Assembly: GCA_958366945.1 (NCBI GenBank) | Contig: CATXCY010000005.1 | Coordinates: forward strand, 19,708 to 83,707 | Origin: an uncultured bacterium | GTDB taxonomy: Bacteria; Vulcanimicrobiota; Xenobia; Xenobiales; Xenobiaceae | Length of the DNA stretch: 64,000 bases | Direction: 5' to 3' | Part shown: piece by piece, positions 26,188 through 61,041 of the stretch | How positions within the stretch are numbered: the first letter of the stretch is position 1 | How the letters are laid out: every line of letters begins with the position of its first letter | The notes under the pieces: model-generated | Seen by the model: only the letters and a program-made list of their open reading frames with translations | Database searches by the model: none | Told to the model about the DNA's origin: nothing | Program-made: the position numbers and the translations under genes

Positions 26188-26310
26188 TACTAGAGTTGTC
26201 TCCTTAATTTGAGGTCTGCGACCATCAGCACAGAAGAAAAACCCGCCTGACCAGAGTTTACCGTTTCAATGGCGCAGCGCTATGTATATACGTTAGAATT
26301 ATGGAGGAGA

Positions 26311-26693
26311 AAAACGTGAGACTGTAAGCCGGGTTCTGTATCTGCTTATAAAGCTGATGGCAGCCATTTATCTGTGAAACATGTTGCCATGTTCCTCTAG
26401 CGATCTTTTGAGAAGGGATCCGACGGGCCGCCGGGCGCTTAAGACGCTCCTTCTGCTGATCTTGCTCCAAGTGGGGTTTACCTGGCCAGCACGTCTCCGC
26501 ACTGCCGGTGGGCTCTTACCCCGCCGTTGCACCCTTACCTGAACTTTCTTATGAAAGTTAGGCGGTCTAACATTTCTGTGGCACTTTCCTGAAGGTTGCC
26601 CCTACTGGACGTTATCCAGCACCCTGCCCTAGGGAGCCCGGACTTTCCTCAGGAGTTCTATAAAAACTCCCGCGGCTGCCCGTCTCACGTCAA
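26311..26693 (-). ncRNA. rnpB: RNase P RNA, bacterial type A
   Basis: Minus-strand reads include GAGGAAAGUCCGGGCUCCCUAGGGCAGGGUGC (the P4 region) and CAGGUAAGGGUGCAACGGCGGGGUAAGAGCCCACC. Other conserved segments are GGUAAACCCCACUUGGAGCAAG, ACAGAAAUGU and the 3' ACAGAACCCGGCUUA. The P1 helix ACGUGAGAC/GUCUCACGU defines the ends. The gene is a GC-rich island in AT-rich DNA. Confidence 0.95.
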
Positions 26694-32653: not shown

Positions 32654-32695
32654 GAATGAAACTATTTCGTTTAACCAAAGCAATGGAGGGTGAAA

Positions 32696-34171
32696 ATGGG
32701 GCTTAGTCCTGCGGCAAGAGTAGGCATGATGACGGTGGTGGCCTTCATTCTGCTTGGCCTTGTCTTCCTGCAAATTGGTAAAGTTGGGCCTGATGTGGGT
32801 GAAAAATATCATGTCATGTTTGACGACGTCCAAGGTTTACAAGTTCGTTCGTCGGTACATCTTTCCGGCGTACGTATCGGTTATGTTTCCGATATAGAGC
32901 TTAACTCTCAAAATCGCGTTGACGTAACTATTGTAGTGACTCGTGATGGAGCTAAACTTTTTAGCTCCGATTATTTTGTCTATACTATAGCTTCTAATAT
33001 CTTGGGTGATAAATGGTTAGACATTAAGCCCGGCGCTGTGCCCGAGGGAGTTGAACCTATCTCTGTCGATGAAGTAGTTATCGGTACTACTCCCATTTCA
33101 CTTGAGCAATTGGCCCAAGAAGGCAGTCAACTTATGGAAGAGTTGCGCGGATCTATCGCTGCTTTAAATGAAATAGTGGGTGACGATACTTTCAAAAAAG
33201 ACGTAAAAGTTACCGTTAATAATATTAGGGATATTTCTGCCAATTTAAAGGATGCTAGCGGTGATGCTCGTCAGCTGATGGGTGAATTGCGTGTACGTAT
33301 GGCTAATATAGCCGGTACGATGGAAAACGTGATAGATAATGCTTCCGCTACTGTGGCTCAGCTTCGCTCAGATGCAGCCGAAATAGGCAGCAATGTCAGA
33401 AATACTACTTCTACGGTAAATAATTTAGTTCAAGGCAATGCTTCCAACTTAAATGCCATTGTTATGAACTTGCGTCAGATGTCTTCCAGCCTTAAAAATA
33501 CCGCTTCAGCCCTAGAAAATGTTGCTGACGATCCACAAATGCGCGGCGATATTTTAGCTATTGCGGCTAACATACGCAAAGTCAGCGAAGAAGTAGCTGG
33601 AATCGCCGGCGATATTCGCACCGTAACAGGCGATCCTCAAGTTCAGGAAGATTTGCGCGAAACCGTACATAATGTTCGCGAAGCTTCCGGCTCGGTTAAA
33701 CGCGTTACTCAAAAGGTAGAAGGTGCTGTAGACAAATTCCCTAGCGGCTTGAGCAAAGGGGATCGCCCCCTTTTCCAAGGTGATGTAGCTGAAGAGCTCA
33801 ATATGAGCAATGGTCAGCTTTCTACCAACGCCAACGCTTGGCTTTTCCCCTACGGTGGACCGCTTACTTTCAGAGTTGGTCTCGACTCTATAGGCAACGA
33901 AAATCTGCTTAATTTACAAGCTGGCAAGGCGTGGGACAATTGGCGAGTACGTGGCGGTATTGTCCGCTCCAAAGTAGGTGTTGGCGCCGATGCTTGGTTC
34001 TTTGACAAGCGTTTAGAAACGTCGCTAGATGTATACGATCCACGTGATATAAAAGTTGACGTTTTGGGTAAGGTAGTTTTACCTTCTGATTGGTACATCT
34101 ACGGTGGTGTACGTGACGTTACCGATAAACATAACAGCGCTCCAGTTATCGGCGCTGGTAAACGATTCTAA
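32696..34171 (+). CDS. mlaD: MCE-domain substrate-binding protein (MlaD-like) with a long C-terminal extension
   Basis: N-terminal TM helix, an MCE domain, and roughly 300 aa of additional helical or low-complexity sequence. Confidence 0.75.
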   Translation: MGLSPAARVGMMTVVAFILLGLVFLQIGKVGPDVGEKYHVMFDDVQGLQVRSSVHLSGVRIGYVSDIELNSQNRVDVTIVVTRDGAKLFSSDYFVYTIASNILGDKWLDIKPGAVPEGVEPISVDEVVIGTTPISLEQLAQEGSQLMEELRGSIAALNEIVGDDTFKKDVKVTVNNIRDISANLKDASGDARQLMGELRVRMANIAGTMENVIDNASATVAQLRSDAAEIGSNVRNTTSTVNNLVQGNASNLNAIVMNLRQMSSSLKNTASALENVADDPQMRGDILAIAANIRKVSEEVAGIAGDIRTVTGDPQVQEDLRETVHNVREASGSVKRVTQKVEGAVDKFPSGLSKGDRPLFQGDVAEELNMSNGQLSTNANAWLFPYGGPLTFRVGLDSIGNENLLNLQAGKAWDNWRVRGGIVRSKVGVGADAWFFDKRLETSLDVYDPRDIKVDVLGKVVLPSDWYIYGGVRDVTDKHNSAPVIGAGKRF

Positions 34172-34247
34172 CCCGACTCTGCCTGAAGTCCTCTGCCTCT
34201 TAGGTGGGGGATAAGGGGGGAAGTGGCGAAGCTACCTTGCAATGATA

Positions 34248-34345
34248 CCCTGGGTCGGTCGCACGGGAATTTATGCCTGGGGAAAGAGTACAAGTCGTTG
34301 CAATTTCTAGAAGTTGCAAGGTTGCTCTAGCCTAATCAGGAAGCT
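34248..34345 (+). ncRNA. conserved GC-rich structured RNA motif, copy 1 (unknown family)
   Basis: About 80% identical to 40946..41040. The hairpin UUGCAA-uUUCuaGAAg-UUGCAA (34298-34319) corresponds to CUGCAG-uUCCucGGAg-CUGCAG in copy 2, with compensatory changes. Confidence 0.5.
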
Positions 34346-34484
34346 CCTTCTTCTTTGAGTGGGGGTACGTTTAGCAAAATATGGTTGTATATCCGGCGTG
34401 TTCTAGGCTGGCTTTGTCTTTACAAGCAGAAGTTCAGCAAAGTGCGTCGGCGCGAGCAGCAAAGGGCGGTTAATATCCAAAGCA

Positions 34485-40858: not shown

Positions 40859-40945
40859 TCGATACTTTAGCCTAATCCCGCTGGAAATCTTCCATACATT
40901 TAGTTGAAGATGAAGACGGGCGTGACGAACCTATTTCGGGAAAAT

Positions 40946-41040
40946 ACCGTGGGTCGCACGGGAATCTACGCCTGTGGAGAGAGTGTAAGCCGCTGCAGTT
41001 CCTCGGAGCTGCAGTGCTGTTTTCGCAGAAGCAGGAATCC
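40946..41040 (+). ncRNA. conserved GC-rich structured RNA motif, copy 2 (inside the ATP synthase operon)
   Basis: See copy 1. Hairpin CUGCAG-uUCCucGGAg-CUGCAG at 40993-41014, with an upstream CCGUG-ggucg-CACGG stem-loop. Confidence 0.5.
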
Positions 41041-41081
41041 CCCACCTAATAGGCGGGAGTGCGTTCACTTAGGAGGTGTCG

Positions 41082-41588
41082 ATGGACATAATCCTCGCCT
41101 TGTTGAAGAATATGGGCTCTGAACCGCTAATGATAGTGGTTCAGGTGTTCCTTTTCTACGTTTTCCATTTATTGATGAGCCAAATTCTCTATAAGCCTAT
41201 GTTAGCGGCTCGCCGCGAGCGTAAGGCACAGACTGCCGATAAGGTTAGTCAGGCTCAGGAATTGAATGAAATAACGATCAAGGCTAAGACTGAATATGAA
41301 GAAAAAGTCCGTCTGGCCAGAAAAAAAGCTCTTGAACGAGTACAAGCAGCCCAGAAAGAGGCTGAAGATCTTCGTCAGGAGCGCTTAACCAAAGCTAAAG
41401 CCGAATCTGAGACTATTATCGAAAAAGCCAAGGCTTCGGTCAAAGAAGAGCGCTGTCGCGCAGAGGCCGAGCTCGATTCGGCTGTATCCAAGTTGGCTTC
41501 GGAAGCTGCTTGGCGCATACTTTCTGGTCTTACTAGCGGTCGCGAGCGTGAGCGTGTTGAAAAATTTGTAAAGGAGAGCGTAAAATGA
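41082..41588 (+). CDS. atpF2: F0F1 ATP synthase subunit b' (second b-type subunit)
   Basis: N-terminal TM helix followed by a long charged coiled coil. The ATG at 41082 follows an RBS AGGAGG. A second b-type gene follows. Confidence 0.75.
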   Translation: MDIILALLKNMGSEPLMIVVQVFLFYVFHLLMSQILYKPMLAARRERKAQTADKVSQAQELNEITIKAKTEYEEKVRLARKKALERVQAAQKEAEDLRQERLTKAKAESETIIEKAKASVKEERCRAEAELDSAVSKLASEAAWRILSGLTSGRERERVEKFVKESVK

Positions 41589-49399: not shown

Positions 49400-52300
49400 T
49401 TGATTAAGCTTTCTCTGACAAGCCGTGTCTTAAAAGTCGGAGGCATAGCGGTAGCTTCTGTAGCTGCCTTTTTGCTGTGCCTAGTTGGCTTGTTTTACTT
49501 GTGTCTTTCTCAGTCTGCCAATTCATTGACTCAGTATGGACTTAGTGTCCTTAATGATAATTTCACTGGACAAGTAGAGCTAGAAAGAGCTCAATTTAGC
49601 AGAAAGTCCCTTATTTTAGAGGGAGTTTCTTTAAAACTAGATGATGGAGAGCCTTTAGCCAATTTGGAAAAAGCCGAACTGGACTTCCATTGGCTTAGAG
49701 GCTTAATGCGTTTAGATTATATGGCCGTTTTGGGCGACTTGCGGTTGCATAATTTAGATCTAACTCCAGAAATAGATAAAGACGGTCGCTTTAATTTCGC
49801 TCAGTTAAAGTCGACGAAGCCTAAAAAAGATAAAAAGCGTTGGCCTTGGGAACAATATTTTAGTCGCTATGAAGGATCTGTTAGTTTAGATAATGGTTCG
49901 GCTTTTTTCCGCGATTGGAGTAGGGGAGACTTCTGCGCTCAGCTAGACAAATTAAATCTTCTGATTATTGCCCAACCGGATCATAAGGCCGAGTTTGAAA
50001 TTAGCCTCGTGCCTCTTCAAAAAGCCAATTCCTGGGCATCTGAAAATGGCAAAGTGGAGCTTAAAGGCAAAATCCGCTTGGATATGGCTCCCGATTTTGA
50101 TGCTACTCTCAATTTGGTCAATATAGATTTGGTGCGTTGGAGCGAATATTACCATTTACCTAAAGCTGTTCGTTTATTAGGAGCGCAACTTAATAGCAAT
50201 ATTTGGGCTAATTGTAAGGCTCATGCTTGGAGCCAAACTTTAGAAAAACTCAATTATGGTGGCCATGTAAAGCTGAGTCACGGCTCTATTATGGCTACAC
50301 ATTGTCAAGAGCCCATTGAAAATATTGTTTTGGAAGCTGATATTATTTCTGGTTTAGCTTCTATAAAAAGATTGAGCGCTCAATTTGCTGACGCTTTGCT
50401 TTCCGCTGGAGGAAAAGTCTATATTTGGAGTCCGTCTGGGAAGATAAAGGACTGGCAAGGACGAGTTAAGTTGGATGCAACTGTCCCTGAGTTGCAATTG
50501 CGCAAACTGAGCCGTGCTCTAGGAATAAAAGTTCCGATAAGTGGCAAGATTAGTACCGAATTAAATGTCGATGGAACTTTGCGCAATCCTGGTGCTAAAG
50601 GAAAAATCAAGTCGGCAAAGTTGACTTACGCCGATAAGGAAATAAGTCAGCTTAGCATAGATGTTAGTTGGAAGGACAAACTTCTCACTATTGAGAGTTT
50701 GAAAGCTCAGGCTGCTCAAGGCAATATTCAAGGCCACGGCTACGCTCTCTTTGAAGGATCAAAACCGCAATTGGTATTTAATCTTGATGGTCAAGATCTT
50801 TCTTTGCAAGGTATAAGTCCCGTAGGTGGTCACGTCGGGCAATTTAAAGTATCAATGGTAGGTACTGCTGATTCGCCTTTTGTTTATGGCGAAGGATCTG
50901 GAGTCGGTGGCTTTTCTGGTGCTGCTTCCATGTTAGGATCGGCTTCGGCTCAATTTATGGTATTGGGAGATACCGTAAGTCTCAATAATGTCAGAGCCTA
51001 TACAAATTTAGGCCAAGCTAGTGTGCCTTATGCTAGTTACAATTATAAGCACCCTTATTTATACGCTTCTGTACAAACTGATAATTTGTCTTTACCTTCT
51101 GTGAGCGTACCTTCTATAGGCTCAGTTAGCGGCACTGTTAGTGGCAGGGCTCAGGTTATGGGTGTACCTACCGACTTAAACAGTTTGAGTGTTTGTGCTT
51201 ACAGTCAGTCTACCAATTTAAGTTTAGGCAATTTACAAATTAACAATTTACATGGAGCTGTCGGCCTCGATCGTCAAAGTGTCTATCTTCCACAAATGAG
51301 TGGACAAGTGGCTGGAGGCAGTGTCTATGCCAGCGGTTGGATTGGCTTAAAAGGCGGTACTTCTAGCGTAAGTATACTAGCTCGAGATGTAAATATCGCT
51401 CCTTTTGCCGATATTGTTCAATATGATATCCCTTTGAAACTCAATGGAGTAGGGGATATGGGAGCTAGTTGGTTCGCTAATGGAAGCGACCACAATAATT
51501 GGATCAGTCTTTATGTTGAAGGTCAGACTGGCCACCAAGCTGTGTTGCAAGAGGCTGCGGCTCACACTATGACGGCGTCTGACGGCAGGGCTGCAGAAAA
51601 TGCTGCTGCCGAAAGTACTGCCGCTTATAACGAGCCCAACCGAGTTGGTTCGGAAATAAACCCGGAGCCTACGCCTGTACCCACGTTTGCCTCTGAAACC
51701 ACCAGCAAAGCGGACACTCTTATTGCTTCTTCAGCAGGCGTGGCTACAGAACAACTTGGCACTTTAAGTTTCTCTCTCGAGCGTAACGAAGTCGATTCTC
51801 AAGCAGCCATGCAAAAATTGGGCTTAGCTTACAATGTGGCTCCTGGCTTTAGCCATTTCGAAGAGCCCAATGGTTATGCTGCTGCTGTGCAAGGATTTGT
51901 CGGCAGACAAGGGCTCGGTTTTGTCGGTTGGGCCAAAGATTTAGCCTTGGATGGCCGCCGCCTCACTCAGGATCTGTCCTTAGAGGGGCGCTTGACCGGT
52001 CGTTTTGGAGCTTGGGGACAACCCAAAAATTTAGCTCTTAGTTATTTCACGGCTATAAGTGGTTCGCCGGTTAAACTTGTGGATCAACACACTTTATGGC
52101 TAGCTGGTCGTGGGGTTTTGAAAAATGGTTGCCTGAGCTTACAGGACAATATTTTAGCTTGGAATTATTGGCCTCGCTCTGGTTGGGAGGCTATCCCCCA
52201 CTTAGAAGGCAGCGCCTACGCTTTTTTAGGTCCGGACATGGCTCGTCCGCTGCAGCAAAATGGTTTACTCTATTCTTGGTTGCCTGAAATAGGTTTAGTC

Positions 52301-55300
52301 AAAGTAGAGGGCGATATTATGCTTGGTACTCCTCTGAGCTACCAACTGGCTGCCGAGGCTACAGGTATAGATATTGCTTGGCTACACGAACAAAATTGGC
52401 TGGCTCAGGCCGCAGACTTATTGGATAAGGCTAATATTACTGGCGGTCAAGCTAACCTTTATGCCAAGATTGGCTCCGAGCGCGGAACTCCAAAAATTTT
52501 ACCTGGCACTTGGGCTTATATTCCTTGGTTTACCGCTGGAAGTGCCAATAACAGTCGCATCTTCTCTGGAGCAGTTTCTTTATCTTCGGAAGTAGCTATC
52601 GACCCAACGGCAAATGGTAAAGCTACTATGGGGGAAATCAATTTTGAGCGCTTATTAGTCTCTTCTGCGCCCAGAGACAAACGTCTTTTTCAAGCCAAGG
52701 GACGTTTGGCCAACTACGATTCTGAGCCTATACCTTCAGGTTTATTACAAGCTAAAGGACGAATTGATGGCGGCCAAGCGGCTTTAAATATTAAAGCTAA
52801 AGACTGGAACAGTGATCATGTTATGGCTTTGCTGCCCGGCTTGGAAGAACACGGGCAAAAGTTCAGTGGTTGGCTTGGTACTGACGAGCTTGATATTTCC
52901 TTCGACTCTAAGCGTGGCCTTTTAGACACTTTATCAATGGAAGGTTCTATGTACTTCCATGATGGCCATTTACTTTTGGCCGATAGTTTAATTCCCATTG
53001 ACAGACTTTCTGCTCAGGTTAGTAGGGACAGTAACAAATTAGTTTTCTCTGACTTAAATTTGCTCTCTGGCAATTTCCTTTTTCAAGGTTCCGGTTGGCG
53101 TAGTTCTTCAGGTCGTTTAGAAACTAAGCTTTACGCCAAAGATATTGCTTTGGACTCTCTCTCTTATTTCGATCCTGCCCTTTCCGATTTGCATGGCAGC
53201 GTAGATTTAGCTTTATGTGTAGAGTCTGACGATCTGTCTTTTAGAGCTGTGCAAGCCGTTTTGGCTATGGAAGGCAAAGATGTCACTTGGGGTTCTGTTC
53301 CTGTGAGTCTTTATTTTCCCGATTTCAAAATGGGCACAGTTAAAAGGGCGGAAAATGGCGAACTGTATACTGCTAAAGGTTTTGGCATAGCAGCCAGCTA
53401 TAAAGATGGGCGCGTTTATGTCAATATCCCCTCGGAAGCTGTGAAGTTTAGCGCTTACAGATTCTTTGAAAAAGTTTTGCTTCCCAAAGAAGTTGCTGAT
53501 CGTTTGATGGAGCCGGGAGATGAAAATCAAAAAGGTTTCCGTCCTCACCCAGCTTTAGATAACCAGGGAGAGATTATTGGCGCCCGTTTAGATAAAGAGC
53601 CCGTATCATTTAGCGTATCTGGTGATTTCAATTTTTCTCCATCTTTTAATTCCGGAGGAGAAAATTGGTTTTTAGGCCCTGATGGCCCCGACTTTGGCAA
53701 TGGTGAGCAACCATTAGTTTTCAGTTTAAAAAATTTCCAAGGTAATATGGCCAGAGCGGCTTTAGGGCTGCCCATGAGTCAGCGACGTTTTAGCTTCAGT
53801 GGAGAGCTGGGATTAAAAGGGCAATGGTACAGAGGTCATCTGGCTGAAGCTCCAGCCGGTTCTTTGCGCTACAACTTTGACATTTCTCAATTAGCTTTCG
53901 GCAGTGTTACTATCGACAAAGCGGAAAATATTGAAAAAAGCGGCAAAACTGAGGAAGAAGCAGATAAAAAGCAGCCTCGTCGCATTTTGTGGCGCGGCCT
54001 TACTCTTAAGCAAAATTTAAAAGGTGCTTATAGCCGTGAAGAAAAGGCTGGTCGTTTTATTATCGAGCCTTTCGAATTTGTACCAGAAAAGCATAGCTTC
54101 GGCCCTGAAGGCAAAGATGATGAGTCACTTGCTTCTGGTAGTGTCAGTGGTAGTGCCAATTTAGCTCTCACCCGTTTGCCGTGGCGTTCTTCATCCATAG
54201 GAAACACTGCTAACGACAAAAATCAGGCAGATTCGAGCTCCAAAAATGCTTCTATAGACGCTAATGAACTCCATTTAAAAATAAGTCAGGTGCCTATTTC
54301 TGAGCTGGGATCTTTCCTCTTCCCCAGTTTGAATAGTGGCTTTGTGGAAGATTTTGTTCTGAATGCTTCTGGCCCTATTTATTCGCCCGTCTTTAATATG
54401 CTTTTCAATGTTACCAATGGCAAAGCGGGCAATTTGGACTTAGCCTCCATAACTGGTGCTGTCAGTGGTCGTCGCGATCCCCAAAGTAAACTTTATCAAG
54501 TTAAACTCGGCACTTCTGAAACTGCTTTTAGAAATGAGCGAATTAAAGATATCGTCAGTCAGGGATTACAAGAACTGGGCAACGTTGAAGATTATGCCGC
54601 TGGCATTAAAGTTTATTTCGGCAAAGAAAAGAAAAGTGATCGAGTTTTTAGTATTTCCGGTACTTTACCTTACGAAGTAACTAGGGTAAGGCCCAAAGAT
54701 GACGGTTCTTTAGTGCCTTTCTGGAGAGGCACTAGTGTCTCTTTAGACGGTGCTGTCGATATCAATGCCGAGCTTAAAGACAAAGACTTAGGTTTGCTTT
54801 CTAGTGTAGTTAGTGATGTTTCCGAAAGTGCTGGTAATATGTTAGGTACTTTACATATTGGTGGTACTTTGCTGCGTCCGGAAGCGATTGGCGAATTAAA
54901 AGTTATTGATGGACAAATTGAACATAAAAAAGTCGGCACGATTTCTGATTTAAATATTGAAGCCAACTTTAGTGAAATTCTCGATTCCGATTTGAAGAAT
55001 AAGTATATAGAGCAGAAAAAACGCAATTATATAGCTGAGCATGGTTTTGGAGCCGTTTTAGCTGAGCATCTTAGCCGAAAAGCTCAAGAAAATAGCTCCG
55101 CTCAAAATTCTGATTCAGAGTTAAAAAATGACGGCTCGAAAGAAAAGCAAGTCGCGGAAAAAGAGCAATTTGAGCCTTTAGACTTTAGTGATGCTCGCTT
55201 CAATCGTATCGAGTTGCGCAAATTTAGTGGTAAGCTCGGAGATAAAAACTTTGTTATGCAAGGGCGAGCCGATATGGACGGCTTCACTCCTATGGATGTG

Positions 55301-56407
55301 GATTTGTCTTTCACTGGTGAGCAACTTCCTTTGCGTTGGGGTAGCCTTTTTGAAGGCAGAGCCGATGTCGATTTGCACTTAAGTAAAGCTGATGTTAGTG
55401 GCAAGGACTTGGCTTCATGGAAGGAGAGTTTGCGCACTCGGGCGGCAGCTCGTCCTAGGCTTGGCATTTCTTCTTCAGCTTCAAAAGCTCAAGTTGTGCC
55501 TATTCCCAAGATGTACTATCTATCTGGCAAAATTTCTGTGCCTAGAGGCGATGTCAGCGTTGATGTCAGCACTTTAACTAGCAGTTCTGGAGCAAGCTTC
55601 GATTGGAGCAAACTTCCGCTCGATTACCGCATTGATGTCAATATCGGTGAAGATGTGTGGATGCACGCTTTGGGCTGTCGTATCAGAGCTGCCGGAGAAT
55701 TAGCTGTTGTGCCAGACAAAGACACTGGTAAGCCGGTTGTTGACGGAGAAGTTGATCTCTCTCGCGGGCTTCTGGCCATCCCTCTGTATGATTTAAAATT
55801 TAAAGTGCGCAGTGGTAAGGCTGTTTTCAATCATAGTCAAATACCCGAATTGCGAGAGGTAACAGCCGATGCTCAAGTTGACAATTACGAAATTACGGCT
55901 TTTGTAAGCGGCGCTTATCCCAATATCAAAGTCGATTTCGTTTCTAATCCACCTTTGGCTGAAAAAGAAATTCAAAACTTGTTGGCTTTAGGCGGTTTCG
56001 CTAAATATACTCCGTCCAATTCTGCTTCTCAGATGGTTCATGCTCCCGGAAATACTACCGGAAGTCAGGCTGTAAGCACCGACTTGAATTTGAGTACATC
56101 TGGTATTTCCATGCTTTCGAAGATCCTTTCTTCACCTCTTACTCAAGAAATCAGTCGTATGTTGTTCTTGTCTGACTTCTCCGTAGATATAACTTCCCCG
56201 CATGGATATTCTTTCAAAATAGCTAAATCGATTGATTCTAAAGATCGCTTCTTATTTACTTTGACGCGCAGTTTAAATACTCAAACTGGACAAGATGAAA
56301 GTGTTTATGGTATAGAGTGGCGCTTTAAGAATAATATGCTCTTCCGTCTCGGTTTCGACCAAGATGGATATGTCCGTCCTTGGTTCCAAGGTTTTTGGGA
56401 GTTCTAA
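49400..56407 (+). CDS. tamB: giant TamB/AsmA-like outer-membrane biogenesis protein (2335 aa)
   Basis: N-terminal signal-anchor helix, a very long beta-rich body and a C-terminal DUF490-like segment (GIEWRFKNNMLFRLGFDQDGYVRPWFQGFWEF). TTG start. Confidence 0.75.
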   Translation: MIKLSLTSRVLKVGGIAVASVAAFLLCLVGLFYLCLSQSANSLTQYGLSVLNDNFTGQVELERAQFSRKSLILEGVSLKLDDGEPLANLEKAELDFHWLRGLMRLDYMAVLGDLRLHNLDLTPEIDKDGRFNFAQLKSTKPKKDKKRWPWEQYFSRYEGSVSLDNGSAFFRDWSRGDFCAQLDKLNLLIIAQPDHKAEFEISLVPLQKANSWASENGKVELKGKIRLDMAPDFDATLNLVNIDLVRWSEYYHLPKAVRLLGAQLNSNIWANCKAHAWSQTLEKLNYGGHVKLSHGSIMATHCQEPIENIVLEADIISGLASIKRLSAQFADALLSAGGKVYIWSPSGKIKDWQGRVKLDATVPELQLRKLSRALGIKVPISGKISTELNVDGTLRNPGAKGKIKSAKLTYADKEISQLSIDVSWKDKLLTIESLKAQAAQGNIQGHGYALFEGSKPQLVFNLDGQDLSLQGISPVGGHVGQFKVSMVGTADSPFVYGEGSGVGGFSGAASMLGSASAQFMVLGDTVSLNNVRAYTNLGQASVPYASYNYKHPYLYASVQTDNLSLPSVSVPSIGSVSGTVSGRAQVMGVPTDLNSLSVCAYSQSTNLSLGNLQINNLHGAVGLDRQSVYLPQMSGQVAGGSVYASGWIGLKGGTSSVSILARDVNIAPFADIVQYDIPLKLNGVGDMGASWFANGSDHNNWISLYVEGQTGHQAVLQEAAAHTMTASDGRAAENAAAESTAAYNEPNRVGSEINPEPTPVPTFASETTSKADTLIASSAGVATEQLGTLSFSLERNEVDSQAAMQKLGLAYNVAPGFSHFEEPNGYAAAVQGFVGRQGLGFVGWAKDLALDGRRLTQDLSLEGRLTGRFGAWGQPKNLALSYFTAISGSPVKLVDQHTLWLAGRGVLKNGCLSLQDNILAWNYWPRSGWEAIPHLEGSAYAFLGPDMARPLQQNGLLYSWLPEIGLVKVEGDIMLGTPLSYQLAAEATGIDIAWLHEQNWLAQAADLLDKANITGGQANLYAKIGSERGTPKILPGTWAYIPWFTAGSANNSRIFSGAVSLSSEVAIDPTANGKATMGEINFERLLVSSAPRDKRLFQAKGRLANYDSEPIPSGLLQAKGRIDGGQAALNIKAKDWNSDHVMALLPGLEEHGQKFSGWLGTDELDISFDSKRGLLDTLSMEGSMYFHDGHLLLADSLIPIDRLSAQVSRDSNKLVFSDLNLLSGNFLFQGSGWRSSSGRLETKLYAKDIALDSLSYFDPALSDLHGSVDLALCVESDDLSFRAVQAVLAMEGKDVTWGSVPVSLYFPDFKMGTVKRAENGELYTAKGFGIAASYKDGRVYVNIPSEAVKFSAYRFFEKVLLPKEVADRLMEPGDENQKGFRPHPALDNQGEIIGARLDKEPVSFSVSGDFNFSPSFNSGGENWFLGPDGPDFGNGEQPLVFSLKNFQGNMARAALGLPMSQRRFSFSGELGLKGQWYRGHLAEAPAGSLRYNFDISQLAFGSVTIDKAENIEKSGKTEEEADKKQPRRILWRGLTLKQNLKGAYSREEKAGRFIIEPFEFVPEKHSFGPEGKDDESLASGSVSGSANLALTRLPWRSSSIGNTANDKNQADSSSKNASIDANELHLKISQVPISELGSFLFPSLNSGFVEDFVLNASGPIYSPVFNMLFNVTNGKAGNLDLASITGAVSGRRDPQSKLYQVKLGTSETAFRNERIKDIVSQGLQELGNVEDYAAGIKVYFGKEKKSDRVFSISGTLPYEVTRVRPKDDGSLVPFWRGTSVSLDGAVDINAELKDKDLGLLSSVVSDVSESAGNMLGTLHIGGTLLRPEAIGELKVIDGQIEHKKVGTISDLNIEANFSEILDSDLKNKYIEQKKRNYIAEHGFGAVLAEHLSRKAQENSSAQNSDSELKNDGSKEKQVAEKEQFEPLDFSDARFNRIELRKFSGKLGDKNFVMQGRADMDGFTPMDVDLSFTGEQLPLRWGSLFEGRADVDLHLSKADVSGKDLASWKESLRTRAAARPRLGISSSASKAQVVPIPKMYYLSGKISVPRGDVSVDVSTLTSSSGASFDWSKLPLDYRIDVNIGEDVWMHALGCRIRAAGELAVVPDKDTGKPVVDGEVDLSRGLLAIPLYDLKFKVRSGKAVFNHSQIPELREVTADAQVDNYEITAFVSGAYPNIKVDFVSNPPLAEKEIQNLLALGGFAKYTPSNSASQMVHAPGNTTGSQAVSTDLNLSTSGISMLSKILSSPLTQEISRMLFLSDFSVDITSPHGYSFKIAKSIDSKDRFLFTLTRSLNTQTGQDESVYGIEWRFKNNMLFRLGFDQDGYVRPWFQGFWEF

Positions 56408-56526: not shown

Positions 56527-59500
56527 GTGGACTTTTTTAAGAATAAGGGCTGGTTGTATATGAACCGCTGTCGTGGTTCAGCTAGAAGAGGTGCAAATCT
56601 TACTAGTCCTTATTTATCATTGGTAAAAGTATTAAGTGACGCAGCTATAAAGACAGAAAAACAATCAGATTCTACGGAAAACAACAAAGAACAAGAAAAA
56701 CATAATCATAAAAAAAATGACAATATAAAAGAAAAAGCTCCCCATTTAAATAATGGCTCTAATTCGCCAGATAATTTTGAATTTGATCCTTCTGATGAAA
56801 GCATTTTAACGGGGTGGAAAGGGATTAAAAAACAACGCAGCATAGAGTTGCCCACAGTCTCTCCTTCTAGAGCAAAGGTAACTTCTGTAGCTGAGGGAGC
56901 TTTTGCCAATTCTACCGAATTAGCCAAAATTGTTGTACCTGAAGGCATTGTGGCTATAGGTAAAGGGGCTTTTCTCAATTGCAGCAGTTTGGGCAGTGTA
57001 ATTCTGCCCAGCACTTTAAAAACTATCGGTGACGAGGCTTTTAAAGGTTGTGTTTCTTTAAAAAATATAACTTTTGGCTCTTCTTTAGAGCAACTAGGCA
57101 AATCGGCTTTTAGCGAGTGTACTTTACTCAAGAAGGTTGCTTTCACTTCTGGCTCTGCTTTGACGGAAATTCCTCAGCGGTGCTTTTTTGAGTGCGAAAG
57201 TTTGCATGAAATAAAATGGCCAGAGTCTTTACAAGAAATCAAAGAAGAAGCCTTTCGGTCCTGTACGTATCTGGAATCTCTTAGTTTCCCTCCTTCTTTG
57301 GCCAAGATCGGCTATTCAGCTTTTCGCGGCTGTACGCGTTTAAAATCTTTACATGTTCCTGAAGATCTGAAAGTGGTGGCAGAATTTGCCTTTGCCGAAT
57401 GCTCTTCTCTAGAAACTGCCGAACTTCCGGAAGATATTGTCGTTTTGGAAGGCGGTATTTTTAATAATTGCTCTAAGTTGCGCTCTGTAAAGCTGAGCAA
57501 TAACTTGCAAAAAATTGGCGCTGGAACTTTCAGTGGATGTACCGCTTTAAAAGATTTAGCTTTTCCTGCTTCTCTTTCTTCTATAGGAGTGCGAGCTTTT
57601 TGTGATTGCGTAAGTTTGCAAAAACTCAATTTGAGCCGTTGCAAATTATCTGTTTTGGAGCAGGAAGTATTTAGCGGCTGTAGCGGATTGCATGAAATTT
57701 ATTTGCCTTTTTGCTTGCGAGAAATTTATAAAGCTTGTTTTAAGAGTTGCAGTGAGCTCTATTCTGTAGAAATTCCTGGGGAAGTTGTTTCTTTAGGCGA
57801 GCGCTGTTTTGAAAATTGCCGCAAACTTAATGAAATAGACCTCTCTTCTGTTCCTGTAGCTATTCCTGAAGGTTTTTGCTCAGATTGCTCTCAGCTTAGT
57901 GCCATTCGCTTCCATAGCGATACTCCGGAAATAGATACATGTGCTTTTGCTAATTGCCGTTCGTTGGTCGAGCTTGAGTTGCCGGAAAAGTTACGAGTCA
58001 TTCGCGATCGGGCTTTTTTAAATTGCTCCGGACTTTTGGAAGTAAATTGCGGCCAAGAATTGCGCCAACTTGGGTCTGAGGCTTTTAAAGGATGTAACGC
58101 TTTGCGTCGGGTTGATTTACCCGCTTCTTTAACTGTGTTTGGTAAAGAAGGAGTGATCTTTAGTAGCGAAGCCGATGAATTGGTCATTTATGGCACGCCA
58201 AGCAGTAGCGCCGAAGATTATGCTCGCTTGCATCGCATAAAGTTCTACGATCCTCTTCTCCACGAAATAAAAGAAGAGGGGAGTGAAGAAGATAATGAGC
58301 TTGATGGTGCGGACACTTCTGATGATACTTCCGACGAAGATCTTACTCCGGAAGAAGAAGAGACTGAAGTCGTCCTTCCGGGTAGCAATACTATACGCCG
58401 TCAAGTGTTTGGCTTGCGGGTAAATCCCTCTTCTTACAAGGCTATTACTTCAAAAGGTGACTGGATTGTCATTCGTCACAAGGCTTTTGAGAAAAAAGCC
58501 GACGCTCGTTCCAATGTTCCAATTGCTGTTCATTTGGAAGGCATAAATCATATAGGGAACAGAGCCTTTTGTAATCGTAATGTCGTTTTTCTCGATTGTT
58601 CCGACAACTTAGTATCTATAGGCAAAGCTGCTTTTTGGGGTTGCAATTTGTTGCAAAAAGTACGCTGGTCTAGCCGTTTGAGCTTTATTGATAAAAGCGC
58701 CTTTTGGGGATGTAATTCTTTGAAAAACTTAGACTTCCCCGATTCTTTGCAATTTATCGATAACTGGGCTTTCTTGGGTTGTTCTGGCATAGAAAGCATA
58801 CATTTGCCCTCTTATTTGGTCTCGTTGGGAGATTATGTTTTTGCTTATTGCTCCAGCTTAGTCAACATTATCATCCCTTCTGGCACACGTTCTCTGGGAG
58901 TGGGAGTATTTTTCGGTTGCACATCCCTGCGCCGTGTGGTCATACCTCCTTCAGTAAAGCAATTCGGCCCAGAAATGTGCAAATTTAGCCCTATTTTTGG
59001 CAATGGCTGTACTTTGGATAGCAGCTCTGAAACTGATGAAAAAGCCAAAGATACAGAGCAAATTATTATTGTTTGTCAAAAAGATTCGGCCGCTCATGAG
59101 TATGCTTTGCAATTTGGCATGAAGTATGAGCTAACTAATTTTGAAGACGGTTGTGTGGCCAATGAACTGATAACAAAGGGCGGAGATTATATGCTGTGTG
59201 GCTTGGGAGTTCACGACAGTATTTCTAAATGTACTCAAGCCTTTAGCGTTAAGTCTGGACATAGCATTGCCAAGCCTGTAGTGCGTCTACTTAAATCTGA
59301 AGCAGATAAGGTAATGGCTTCAGAACGTAGTGTTTTAAATCCGGATAATTGCTCCGGTTTGTCTCAGGCTGAAGTTTTTGCTCTTCTTCAAGGTGCTTAT
59401 GAACTGGCAGATTTGGCCGGTTACATAAAAGCTTGGCACAGAGTATCTGCTTCTAGTGCCAAGAGAATCTTGAATTCTTCGCGTCTGTTTTCTTCTATAG

Positions 59501-61041
59501 AAGATATTTCGCCAATCAAAGATATTGTGGTCAAAGATTCCCCTGTCGTCAAAGAAGTGCAGCCTAAAGAAGTCGATCCTATAAAAATTCTGAAAGCAGC
59601 TTGCGATATTTTAGATCGCATGGAAAAAATAGGTTGGCTCCATATGTCTGGTACAGAAGGGCAGAAGAAAGCTTATCGCCTGCATAAAACAACATTTGAA
59701 AATATGTCTACTACTGAGCAAGAGCTTCCTTCAGATGCGGCTGTTTCCCAGAAAAATGCTACTACAGAGGAAGCAACTGTTACGACTTCGCTAAAAGCAG
59801 AGATTGCAGAGAGCATTTTGGCTTTGAGTGAAAAACAGCCTACGCATATTTTGTCTCAGTTGTCAGCTTCAGAGCGCAGCTTGGCCGAAATATCAAAATC
59901 TTGTGCTGCTGTTGCTGTTGGAGCTTTAAGCAATAGTTTCCCCGCAGCAACAATAAAGGTTAACCAAGGACTGGAGCCTTCTAAGGGGACCATCGCTCTA
60001 AGTAGAATAAGAACGAGCAATGAAGAGAAAACTCGTTCGCTTCCCAAACAAGTTGAATCCAAGCAAACTGAAGAAAAAGTTGTTCGGCCTGTTCTCTCCA
60101 AAGAGGATAGTAAAGTAAAAGTTCAACGAGCTTCTTTAAGCACTCCTTTAGTTGAATTACTTAGTCCTCAAAAGCTAGAAATGCTTAAGCAAGTGTCTAA
60201 GACAAATGCAGACTCAAAGCCTGCTATTGAAGGAATAGTCTTAGCTAAAGTGCCCAGCTTGTCAGTGTCTAAGGTTGATGTGCCAGATCAATTAAATGGA
60301 CGTCCTGTTGAAGCTCTCAGTGACAATTTTATGAAGGGTAACGATGTTATAGAGGAGATAACTTTAGGGCCTTCCTTAAAGACTATCGGTTCTGATGCCT
60401 TTAGAAGTTGTAGTCGTTTGCATATTGTCAATATGGCTGAGAATGGCTTACAAATTGTAAAAGATGGTGCTTGGCGAAGTTGTGAGCGACTTGTAGAAAT
60501 AAGCCTTCCCAATAGTGTCAAAGAATTGGGTAGTCGAGCTTTCTGTGCTTGTAGCCAACTTCGCAATATAAAATTGCCTGCCAGTTTAGTTAAACTTGGA
60601 GAGGCTGCTTTTGCAGATTGTCGTTCTTTACAAAGTTTAGAACTTCCTGAAGGACTCAAAGAAATAGGCACCAAGGCCTTTTTCGGTTGCCGCAATTTGG
60701 AAAGTATCTTCATTCCTGAAAGTTTAACCCATTTGGAAGAGAAACTCTTTGATGTCTCTCATAAGCTTACGATCTATGCTCCCCAAGGATCTGCCGCTGA
60801 ATCCTATGCTCTGGCTCACACTATTCCATTTTGTGCAGCTTCTGCCGATACTTGGCAAACAGCAATGGCGAAAAAAATACAAGCTTCGGAAGCAAAAGAT
60901 GAAGAGCCGCAAATTGCTGCTGATAGCGAAATTGCCGAGGCAGATAAGGTTGAAGAAGTTAAGGACAGCAGCGCTTCTTTAGAGAAAAAAGCCAAGTACC
61001 TTAAGAGAATAGCCGCCAGAACTAAGGGGAAGCGTCGCTGA
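56527..61041 (+). CDS. giant BspA-type leucine-rich-repeat surface protein (1504 aa)
   Basis: More than 30 tandem ~23 aa repeats of the form LxxIxLPxSLxxIGxxAFxxCxxL fall in three blocks. These are separated by an acidic D/E/T-rich linker and a low-complexity region. The start is uncertain (GTG at 56527 or ATG at 56560). Confidence 0.75.
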   Translation: MDFFKNKGWLYMNRCRGSARRGANLTSPYLSLVKVLSDAAIKTEKQSDSTENNKEQEKHNHKKNDNIKEKAPHLNNGSNSPDNFEFDPSDESILTGWKGIKKQRSIELPTVSPSRAKVTSVAEGAFANSTELAKIVVPEGIVAIGKGAFLNCSSLGSVILPSTLKTIGDEAFKGCVSLKNITFGSSLEQLGKSAFSECTLLKKVAFTSGSALTEIPQRCFFECESLHEIKWPESLQEIKEEAFRSCTYLESLSFPPSLAKIGYSAFRGCTRLKSLHVPEDLKVVAEFAFAECSSLETAELPEDIVVLEGGIFNNCSKLRSVKLSNNLQKIGAGTFSGCTALKDLAFPASLSSIGVRAFCDCVSLQKLNLSRCKLSVLEQEVFSGCSGLHEIYLPFCLREIYKACFKSCSELYSVEIPGEVVSLGERCFENCRKLNEIDLSSVPVAIPEGFCSDCSQLSAIRFHSDTPEIDTCAFANCRSLVELELPEKLRVIRDRAFLNCSGLLEVNCGQELRQLGSEAFKGCNALRRVDLPASLTVFGKEGVIFSSEADELVIYGTPSSSAEDYARLHRIKFYDPLLHEIKEEGSEEDNELDGADTSDDTSDEDLTPEEEETEVVLPGSNTIRRQVFGLRVNPSSYKAITSKGDWIVIRHKAFEKKADARSNVPIAVHLEGINHIGNRAFCNRNVVFLDCSDNLVSIGKAAFWGCNLLQKVRWSSRLSFIDKSAFWGCNSLKNLDFPDSLQFIDNWAFLGCSGIESIHLPSYLVSLGDYVFAYCSSLVNIIIPSGTRSLGVGVFFGCTSLRRVVIPPSVKQFGPEMCKFSPIFGNGCTLDSSSETDEKAKDTEQIIIVCQKDSAAHEYALQFGMKYELTNFEDGCVANELITKGGDYMLCGLGVHDSISKCTQAFSVKSGHSIAKPVVRLLKSEADKVMASERSVLNPDNCSGLSQAEVFALLQGAYELADLAGYIKAWHRVSASSAKRILNSSRLFSSIEDISPIKDIVVKDSPVVKEVQPKEVDPIKILKAACDILDRMEKIGWLHMSGTEGQKKAYRLHKTTFENMSTTEQELPSDAAVSQKNATTEEATVTTSLKAEIAESILALSEKQPTHILSQLSASERSLAEISKSCAAVAVGALSNSFPAATIKVNQGLEPSKGTIALSRIRTSNEEKTRSLPKQVESKQTEEKVVRPVLSKEDSKVKVQRASLSTPLVELLSPQKLEMLKQVSKTNADSKPAIEGIVLAKVPSLSVSKVDVPDQLNGRPVEALSDNFMKGNDVIEEITLGPSLKTIGSDAFRSCSRLHIVNMAENGLQIVKDGAWRSCERLVEISLPNSVKELGSRAFCACSQLRNIKLPASLVKLGEAAFADCRSLQSLELPEGLKEIGTKAFFGCRNLESIFIPESLTHLEEKLFDVSHKLTIYAPQGSAAESYALAHTIPFCAASADTWQTAMAKKIQASEAKDEEPQIAADSEIAEADKVEEVKDSSASLEKKAKYLKRIAARTKGKRR

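Follow-up and report, generated by a model that had tools for sequence, protein, structure and literature searches.

Gene-less derivatives of IS200/IS605 insertion sequences that carry omega RNAs, homing by TnpB with its omega RNA, and domesticated TnpB proteins with guide-RNA loci are already known. The TnpB of ISAam1 is a 369-residue RNA-guided nuclease with TTTAA as its transposon-associated motif (TAM) and is a compact genome editor (PMC12433972). Palindrome-associated transposable elements (PATEs) are gene-less IS200/IS605 derivatives, some of which possess omega RNAs (Meers et al. 2023, PMC10055086, preprint of the Nature 2023 paper). TldR proteins are nuclease-dead TnpB repressors with guide RNAs (Wiegand et al., bioRxiv 10.1101/2023.11.30.569447). 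Here we describe a structured repeat that is present twice in a 64,000-nucleotide (nt) stretch of contig CATXCY010000005.1 (hereafter the window) from an uncultured bacterium of the Xenobiaceae, phylum Vulcanimicrobiota. Copy 1 includes positions 34248-34345, upstream of a Ser/Thr kinase gene, and copy 2 includes positions 40946-41040, between atpE and atpF'. Both segments are very probably the omega-RNA scaffold (also termed right-end RNA, reRNA) and right end (RE) of non-autonomous IS605-type elements related to ISAam1. This identity explains the repeat, its fold and its covariation.

A family of IS605-type elements related to ISAam1

Relatives were gathered by a scan for a 23-mer core shared by the two window copies (GGTCGCACGGGAATYTAYGCCTG), with one genome per species, which yielded 91 stretches (L001-L091). 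Most of them come from Negativicutes, including Selenomonas, Megasphaera, Mitsuokella, Phascolarctobacterium, Anaerovibrio, and Schwartzia. The others belong to Clostridia, Desulfovibrionaceae, Succinatimonas, and metagenome-assembled genomes (MAGs) labelled Riflebacteria, UBP9, or "uncultured bacterium". Many genomes contain several copies, with 13 in Mitsuokella multacida CP181253.1, and contig ends are frequent. When the copies are piled up, about 105 nt beyond the 23-mer are common to them. The similarity stops abruptly at ...GGGGGTACGTTCAC and is followed by unrelated sequence. This sharp right boundary, ...GTACGTTCAC, is the transposon right end in all copies.

An open reading frame (ORF) of about 371 residues lies directly upstream of the repeat in about 60 of the 91 loci, as located by tblastn. 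It contains the Pfam domains HTH_OrfB_IS605, OrfB_IS605, and Cas12f1-like_TNB and scores above the cut-off of the NCBIfam model "IS200/IS605 family element RNA-guided endonuclease TnpB" (425 bits). Many full-length copies also carry a Y1_Tnp tnpA gene (131-151 residues; Pfam 148.5 bits) just upstream of tnpB, and in autonomous relatives the genes are ordered tnpA-tnpB between the same ends. Since tnpB is located directly 5' of the repeat and the similarity stops sharply on the 3' side, the segment extends from the tnpB stop codon to the RE of an IS605-type element. The autonomous layout is thus, with slashes marking the element boundaries, TTTAA / left end (LE) with hairpin, tnpA (Y1), tnpB, scaffold overlapping the RE hairpin, ...GTTCAC /.

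Comparison of the regions upstream of tnpB or tnpA with the window copies reveals a common LE, CCTAATCCGCCAGAAGTCCTCCACCTCTTAGGTGGGGGATGAAGGCGGG.... A profile seeded with ten LEs, both window copies among them, matches 38 instances including the seeds, and TTTAA precedes most of these. Family members contain an LE hairpin (CTCCACCTCTTAGGTGGGGG) and an RE hairpin (CTCCCGCCTCTATAGGCGGGGG). The two ends are distinct, with imperfect subterminal hairpins and no terminal inverted repeats. As single-stranded DNA (ssDNA), the Mitsuokella ends form strong folds of -13.5 and -10.5 kcal/mol (z about -3.5).

With ISDra2 and IS608 the family has in common that it inserts 3' of a specific pentanucleotide with no target duplication and that its omega RNA stops at the RE boundary. 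Read from the sequences, the cleavage points are separated from the hairpins by about 18 nt on the left (5' of the LE hairpin) and about 9 nt on the right (3' of the RE hairpin); the corresponding distances in IS608, 19 and 10 nt, are similar. The motifs are different, being TTTAA/GTTCAC in this family, TTGAT in ISDra2, and TTAC/TCAA in IS608, and the RNA sequence differs as well.

The closest resemblance is to ISAam1. The family TnpB is 53% identical to ISAam1 TnpB over its full length (E = 1e-135), and the TTTAA 5' of the family LEs is the ISAam1 TAM. The ISAam1 reRNA scaffold (PMC12433972 supplement) shares with the family the 5' hairpin ACCGTGGGnCnCACGGGnAT (RNA form ACCGUGGGnCnCACGG) and the long-range helix. 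It also shares a 3' module, GAAGCCCCCACCTCT...TAGGTGGTGGGAGC (RNA form GAAGCCCCCACCUCU...AGGUGG(U)GGGAG), behind which a short tail runs to the boundary and ends in CAC. An earlier note on this DNA, made from the sequence of the window, had left the family unrecognised; the TnpB association and the shared hairpins make it recognisable as a TnpB omega-RNA scaffold related to ISAam1. A literature search for the "IS605-orfB" RNA motif gave no match.

Near-identical copies of the insertion sequence also occur outside Negativicutes, in MAGs placed in several phyla, such as Blautia (L071), Desulfovibrionaceae (L020 and L091), Succinatimonas (L048 and L050), and Lachnospiraceae (L001). The TnpB proteins of these copies are 83-100% identical over the aligned stretch, and some are fragments of 24-81 residues. 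Such near-identity across phyla indicates either that the element was recently transferred horizontally within gut and rumen communities or that the bins are contaminated.

Anatomy of the two window copies

Both copies are on the + strand. Extended by 20 nt on each side, the two segments show 82% mean column identity over 139 columns. The 23-mer occurs exactly twice in the window, at 34257-34279 and 40952-40974, both on the + strand, and a 23-mer match appears in none of 100 dinucleotide-preserving shuffles of the window. A covariance model (CM) built from 44 family members matches copy 2 with 140.5 bits and copy 1 with 100.5 bits (E-values of 1e-25 to 1e-35). The next best match scores 12.7 bits, and a CM search of the window with filters off gave no further copy. 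Chance similarity is ruled out by the shuffles and the E-values. The earlier note's two related + strand segments are therefore real, and their similarity is longer than it claimed. Including the LE, the full repeated units are 34172-34374 (203 nt) for copy 1 and 40871-41068 (198 nt) for copy 2, of which the noted segments represent the right-hand two thirds. Each unit is composed of an LE of about 65 nt, a short linker, and about 130 nt of scaffold and RE.

Copy 1 has the following features.

34167-34171, + strand: TAM-like target pentanucleotide TCTAA, which contains the TAA stop codon of the MlaD-domain ORF; the LE profile starts at 34172
34172-34240, + strand: LE (nhmmer E = 6e-13), with a subterminal hairpin at about 34190-34210 (CCTCTGCCTCTTAGGTGGGGG)
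34241-34374, + strand: omega-RNA scaffold and RE (CM 100.5 bits), containing 34248-34345
about 34293-34322, + strand: variable hairpin
about 34343-34366, + strand: RE hairpin
34375-34394, + strand: right flank at the guide-equivalent position, placed by the sharp family boundary

Copy 2 has the following features.

40866-40870, + strand: TAM-like target pentanucleotide TTTAG, located by the LE profile and by comparison with an empty site
40871-40939, + strand: LE (nhmmer E = 4e-13), with the hairpin at about 40888-40911 degenerated to TCTTC...GAAGA
40940-41068, + strand: omega-RNA scaffold and RE (CM 140.5 bits), containing 40946-41040
40947-40961, + strand: 5' hairpin P1
40971-40975 with 41031-41035, + strand: helix P2
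40977-40981 with 41020-41024, + strand: helix P2b
40989-41017, + strand: variable hairpin P3
41038-41060, + strand: RE hairpin
41061-41068, + strand: tail GCGTTCAC
41069-41088, + strand: right flank at the guide-equivalent position, with the atpF' Shine-Dalgarno sequence GGAGG (41072-41076) and start codon ATG (41082-41084)

Neither unit contains a protein-coding gene. Pfam assignments agree with the gene context given in the earlier note. Copy 1 is flanked by a MlaD-domain ORF (32690-34171) upstream and a Pkinase ORF downstream, and copy 2 by ATP-synt_C (atpE) upstream and ATP-synt_B (atpF') downstream. The description of the segments as GC-rich holds only mildly: the GC contents of the copies, 0.48 and 0.57, are above the local 0.44-0.47.

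A palindromic repeat of the repetitive extragenic palindrome (REP) or bacterial interspersed mosaic element (BIME) type would likewise be repeated, intergenic, and palindrome-containing. REPs are palindromic units of 20-40 nt, often clustered, and associated with RAYT (TnpA-REP) genes. The unit described here measures about 200 nt and has asymmetric ends, a TTTAA target, and cognate tnpA and tnpB genes, and we consider a REP or BIME origin practically excluded.

The LE of copy 1 aligns with the LE of full-length Mitsuokella copies. As ssDNA it forms a weak fold of -5.8 kcal/mol, and the LE of copy 2 reaches -7.7 kcal/mol, no better than shuffles; the ends of the window copies in general fold no better than shuffles. 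The scaffold of copy 1 has a 4-nt insertion in the 5' hairpin P1, an altered P2, and the tail GTTTAG instead of GTTCAC. Its CM score is the lowest of all full-length matches, which makes it the most decayed full-length member found. The score of copy 2 is typical for the family.

The GC skew is positive in every 8-kb bin of the window (+0.03 to +0.10), and the + strand, which carries most of the long ORFs, is probably the leading strand throughout the window. Given this skew, the top strand of both copies lies on the presumed lagging-strand template. The IS200/IS605 family reportedly shows an orientation bias, described by Ton-Hoang et al. in 2010, and the orientation of the window copies fits it. 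Elsewhere on the + strand of the window, two very long ORFs of 2335 and 1504 residues are arranged in tandem at 49400-56407 and 56527-61041.

RNA fold and covariation

The consensus fold computed by RNAalifold from 44 diverse members consists of a 5' hairpin (P1, CCGUG/CACGG), a long-range helix (P2, CCUGU/GCAGG) extended by GAGAG/UUCUC, a variable hairpin (P3) located inside P2, and the RE hairpin. P3 is the hairpin for which the earlier note had proposed covariation, with UUGCAA..UUGCAA and inner UUC/GAA in copy 1 and CUGCAG..CUGCAG and inner UCC/GGA in copy 2. These changes are confirmed: three pairs differ on both sides between the two copies, at alignment columns 72/93, 77/88, and 80/85.

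The fold is maintained across the family. In an alignment of 87 distinct homologues, which was fitted to the model and thereby favours the structure, 96.3% of the cells are paired, whereas shifting the 3' partners by 1-3 columns leaves 36-50% paired. Changes on both sides are present in 11 of the 26 pairs. None of 500 shuffles matches the observed value on any of five fold measures. Folding of single sequences against shuffles gives z = -3.0 for copy 2 and 0.03 for copy 1 and is equivocal alone. The earlier note had called for a search for homologues; 91 loci are found, and in the 87 distinct sequences the changes largely keep the pairing. The note's argument for selection on RNA structure stands as far as a structured RNA with compensatory changes is concerned. 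The covariation in the RE hairpin, however, may partly reflect selection on the ssDNA hairpin recognised by TnpA.

The Rfam scan that the note had proposed matched neither segment. At the gathering threshold, Rfam matches in the whole window are limited to RNase P RNA and tRNA, and in permissive E-value mode the best match to the two segments has E = 2.6 and is on the opposite strand. The RNase P RNA is of the bacterial class A (284 bits) and is located at 26309-26691 on the - strand; the tRNA is at 49-121 on the - strand. Inspection by eye of the invariant single-stranded stretches gave no convincing complementarity for a pseudoknot.

Neither element contains a sigma-70-like promoter. Any transcription would therefore be read-through from upstream genes, and copy 2 is located inside the atp operon. 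Terminator prediction calls nothing in the elements but the variable hairpin, a scaffold component, with the weak T run behind it. A further terminator-like 12-bp hairpin with a T-rich run is present inside the atpF' coding region, at 41118-41145 on the + strand.

Several family members have an altered scaffold. The 3' half of the variable hairpin is missing in L054:5374-5484. In L009:2972-3121 and L019:3681-3818, unrelated sequence replaces the scaffold after about 45 nt (59 bits).

Insertion sites in related genomes

Loci from UBA4705, HGM23016, and three MAGs from the Hadza gut match the window at 88-91% DNA identity, and each of them has the element between atpE and atpF'. Since retrieval with the 23-mer biases the 5' core, orthologues of the atp locus were fetched through the atpF' protein. 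At least seven related lineages of gut Xenobia have copy 2 at this atpE-atpF' position, and one, a Candidatus Bruticola species (GCA_051874735.1), lacks it. NCBI taxonomy places Ca. Bruticola in Vulcanimicrobiota, class Xenobia. The atpF' protein of this species is 88% identical, and its atpE-atpF' spacer lacks the element.

The empty site reads ...GTTCGAGGCTTTAT/TTAGGAGGTGTCGATGG, or in shorter form GAGGCTTTAT/TTAGGAGG, where the slash marks the insertion point. The empty GCTTTAT/TTAGGAGG differs cleanly from the occupied TTTAG/element/TTAGGAGG, with no target duplication. All orthologues, and the empty-site species too, have the same right flank as copy 2. A lineage found via atpF' and not via the repeat (L096, L097, and L098) has lost the LE entirely, so that the junction reads TTTAA/TAGACAACTACCGTAGG..., but keeps the scaffold (L096:2733-3000).

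The copy 1 site is different. In two relatives with kinases 77-78% identical (L099 and L101), the interval from the MlaD-domain gene to the kinase gene is free of elements. In a third (L103, kinase 97% identical), a mini element of about 345 nt occupies exactly the copy 1 site (L103:2143-2500). Its LE is homologous to that of copy 1, while its interior and right end (...GAGTATGTCAA) are different. The right flank of copy 1, AAAATA(T/A)GGTTGTATATCC, recurs after this different element. The occupancy of the copy 1 site changes readily in evolution, and there is no sign that copy 1 is being maintained; it looks like a decaying relic.

The earlier note had named a cis-regulatory leader first among its options; such a leader or riboswitch-like element would control the kinase gene and atpF'. 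Both copies are indeed intergenic, structured, and oriented like the downstream gene, and copy 2 abuts the atpF' ribosome-binding site. The same sequence, however, stands beside unrelated downstream genes in the 91 loci, usually with tnpB upstream, and its boundaries are transposon ends rather than gene starts. The lack of an Rfam match, the weak best match being on the opposite strand, and the turnover at the copy 1 site in L099, L101, and L103 speak further against a leader, which we regard as very improbable. Among the functions offered in that note, a leader and a small RNA do not hold up, and only a "REP-like structured repeat" comes close.

All mini copies of the related MAGs have the same LE-scaffold junction, which suggests a single deletion derivative that later multiplied. 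Scaffolds without tnpB and with other upstream sequence (GGCGGTCAGTGCTAAGTCAAAAAGCCGACAAG...) are found in L016, L042, and L083, which are Dialister and Selenomonadales MAGs, and in L072 and L077. These contexts may represent independent deletion derivatives.

Predicted transposition and guide function

Established knowledge of the IS200/IS605 family permits a prediction of how these elements would have worked. TnpA would excise and insert the top strand as ssDNA through the LE and RE hairpins, 3' of TTTAA and with no target duplication. RNA transcribed through the right end would fold as the scaffold, bind TnpB, and take 16-20 nt of the host flank as its guide. After excision, TnpB would cut the rejoined TTTAA and flank, and the element would be restored by recombination. 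The mini elements would rely on TnpA and TnpB in trans, and TTTAA followed by TTAGGAGGTGTCGATGGACA is the predicted target form for the cognate TnpB. The anatomy of the elements, their boundaries, the gene association, and the conserved fold are demonstrated by the data above. The competence of the mini elements as guides is uncertain.

Four observations weigh against the assignment to ISAam1-related omega-RNA elements. First, the similarity to the ISAam1 reRNA is confined to the two terminal hairpins; the middle of the scaffold, with the variable hairpin and its flanks, is not alignable. Second, the mini elements, and with them the window copies, which also have no tnpB, lack the scaffold part inside tnpB's 3' coding region that is present in the ISAam1 construct. 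Third, no TnpB is found in the window by tblastn (best E = 1.5), and neither TnpB nor TnpA turned up in the window or in ten related Xenobia loci of 8 kb each (about 80 kb). Fourth, the strong conservation of the 3' part of copy 2, described below, is not explained by a pure relic. The absence of tnpB from the window and the poor DNA folding of the ends make both copies most likely immobile relics of these elements, copy 2 being most likely an old insertion within the atp operon transcript.

The copies, at least copy 2, could still be working guide RNAs for a trans-acting TnpB encoded elsewhere in the genome. The 140.5 bits of copy 2 are within the range of copies beside an intact tnpB, and related Xenobia MAGs (L006, L040, and L086) contain several mini copies whose well-preserved LE and RE and TTTAA-like flanks suggest that elements were recently mobilised in this lineage. 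Meers et al. (PMC10055086) point out that omega RNAs are frequent in PATEs and would need a TnpB acting in trans. The lack of tnpB in the window and the ten related loci and the missing 5' scaffold part, which normally comes from the 3' end of tnpB, make such a role doubtful. An immobile copy whose LE is degenerate or deleted would, moreover, gain nothing from it, and guide function alone would not account for purifying selection.

The window copies resemble PATEs in their hairpin-bearing LE and RE, the absence of an ORF, the presumed mobilisation by TnpA in trans, and the retention of an omega-RNA scaffold. They differ in belonging to another insertion sequence lineage and host, gut Xenobia of the Vulcanimicrobiota rather than Geobacillus, in having degraded DNA hairpins, and in that one of the two has become fixed in several species at an orthologous site in an operon. 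With TldR systems they share an omega-RNA-derived RNA kept at a fixed chromosomal site after the loss of mobility. Unlike TldR loci, they have no adjacent tldR or tnpB, and the guide-equivalent sequence is the original insertion flank, without a TAM at its own locus. A TldR guide-RNA locus, which would have tldR beside it and a guide for a TAM-adjacent promoter target, was considered and rejected, as the window contains no TnpB-like ORF.

Ellis et al. are said to have described a trans-acting small RNA (sRNA) from the 5' untranslated region of Salmonella IS200 tnpA, that is, from the left end and tnpA leader. This sRNA is a possible precedent for host use of an RNA from the IS200 family. It originates from another region of the element, and nothing here points to a trans-acting sRNA.

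Conservation of the copy in the atp operon

The comparison of copy 2 between species rests on eight orthologous sequences. The divergence figures are pairwise and refer to species whose four-fold-site divergence in atpF' and atpA is 0.33-0.42.

Four-fold sites of atpF' and atpA: 0.33-0.42, the reference rate
Upstream spacer: 0.43-0.54, indels included
Left end: 0.19-0.37, near the reference rate
Variable hairpin region: 0.36-0.61, with 96% of cells still paired and four pairs changed on both sides
3' 52-55 nt (3' strand of P2, RE hairpin, and tail): 0.02-0.20, binomial p down to 2e-11

The 3' 52 nt of copy 2 therefore evolve 2 to 20 times more slowly than four-fold sites. The slow part is located at 41015-41068 of the window, and the orthologues are L008, L012, L018/L095, L070, L089, L096, and L097. 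Its low divergence also holds in the independently ascertained L096. In both L096 and L097, a compensatory change from G-C to A-U is present in the otherwise invariant P1. Conservation of the 5' core was rejected as evidence of selection, as most orthologues were retrieved through the 23-mer. A control is provided by a mini copy shared by HGM23016 and CAKUBG01 (L053 and L011), which differs at 23 of 127 scaffold positions (0.18). In the same pair of genomes, the atp copy differs by 0.039 and the four-fold sites by 0.091.

The Shine-Dalgarno sequence of atpF' and the first 55 nt or so of its coding sequence (41069-41137) are invariant in the eight species, synonymous sites included. This start block is also invariant in the empty-site species (L093 among the orthologues compared) and is thus under a constraint that does not depend on the element.

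The conservation pattern of copy 2 is unexpected for a dead relic and would point either to use by a TnpB encoded elsewhere or to takeover by the host. In the latter case, which would add to the identity proposed above and not replace it, copy 2 would have been exapted as a structured intercistronic RNA of the atp operon that stabilises the atpE segment or sets or insulates the translation of atpF'. The atpE-atpF' copy would then be a domesticated omega-RNA relic whose fold and 3' 52 nt are under purifying selection across gut Xenobia as a structural or translational element. On the evidence of sequence comparison, we hold both the exaptation and such domestication to be possible, though unlikely.

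Several observations are in keeping with a host function: the site shared by at least seven lineages, the slow 3' 52 nt even in the LE-less L096, the compensatory changes that keep the fast variable hairpin paired, the P1 change in L096, and the faster divergence of the second mini copy (0.18 against 0.039). In addition, the RE hairpin has a C-rich 5' arm (CCCCCACCUC) that complements the Shine-Dalgarno sequence of atpF', with a predicted duplex of -8 to -11.6 kcal/mol. Loss of the hairpin might accordingly be harmful, although this is speculation, and the Shine-Dalgarno sequence is predicted to pair with the downstream coding sequence whether or not the hairpin is present. The conserved parts are, however, the same as those across the mobile family, so the constraint could be TnpB binding. 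Retrieval of most orthologues through the 23-mer biases the 5' core, and short recombination tracts between species are a possible alternative cause of the low divergence. The empty-site species also does well without the element.

Significance

Gene-less repeats outside Rfam are easily mistaken for new riboswitches or sRNAs, and the label of a TnpB omega RNA prevents this mistake. What is new is an omega-RNA lineage related to ISAam1, with the TAM TTTAA, that is not in Rfam and for which about 90 natural variants with mapped covariation are now at hand. This set of variants could inform scaffold engineering of the compact ISAam1 editor. The occurrence of one family in Negativicutes, other gut and rumen phyla, and Vulcanimicrobiota documents its spread. 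The ATP synthase operon contains an unusually well-preserved copy, which is the only part that possibly goes beyond known systems. If it does have a host function, it would be a guide-RNA scaffold exapted for host gene expression without the nuclease.

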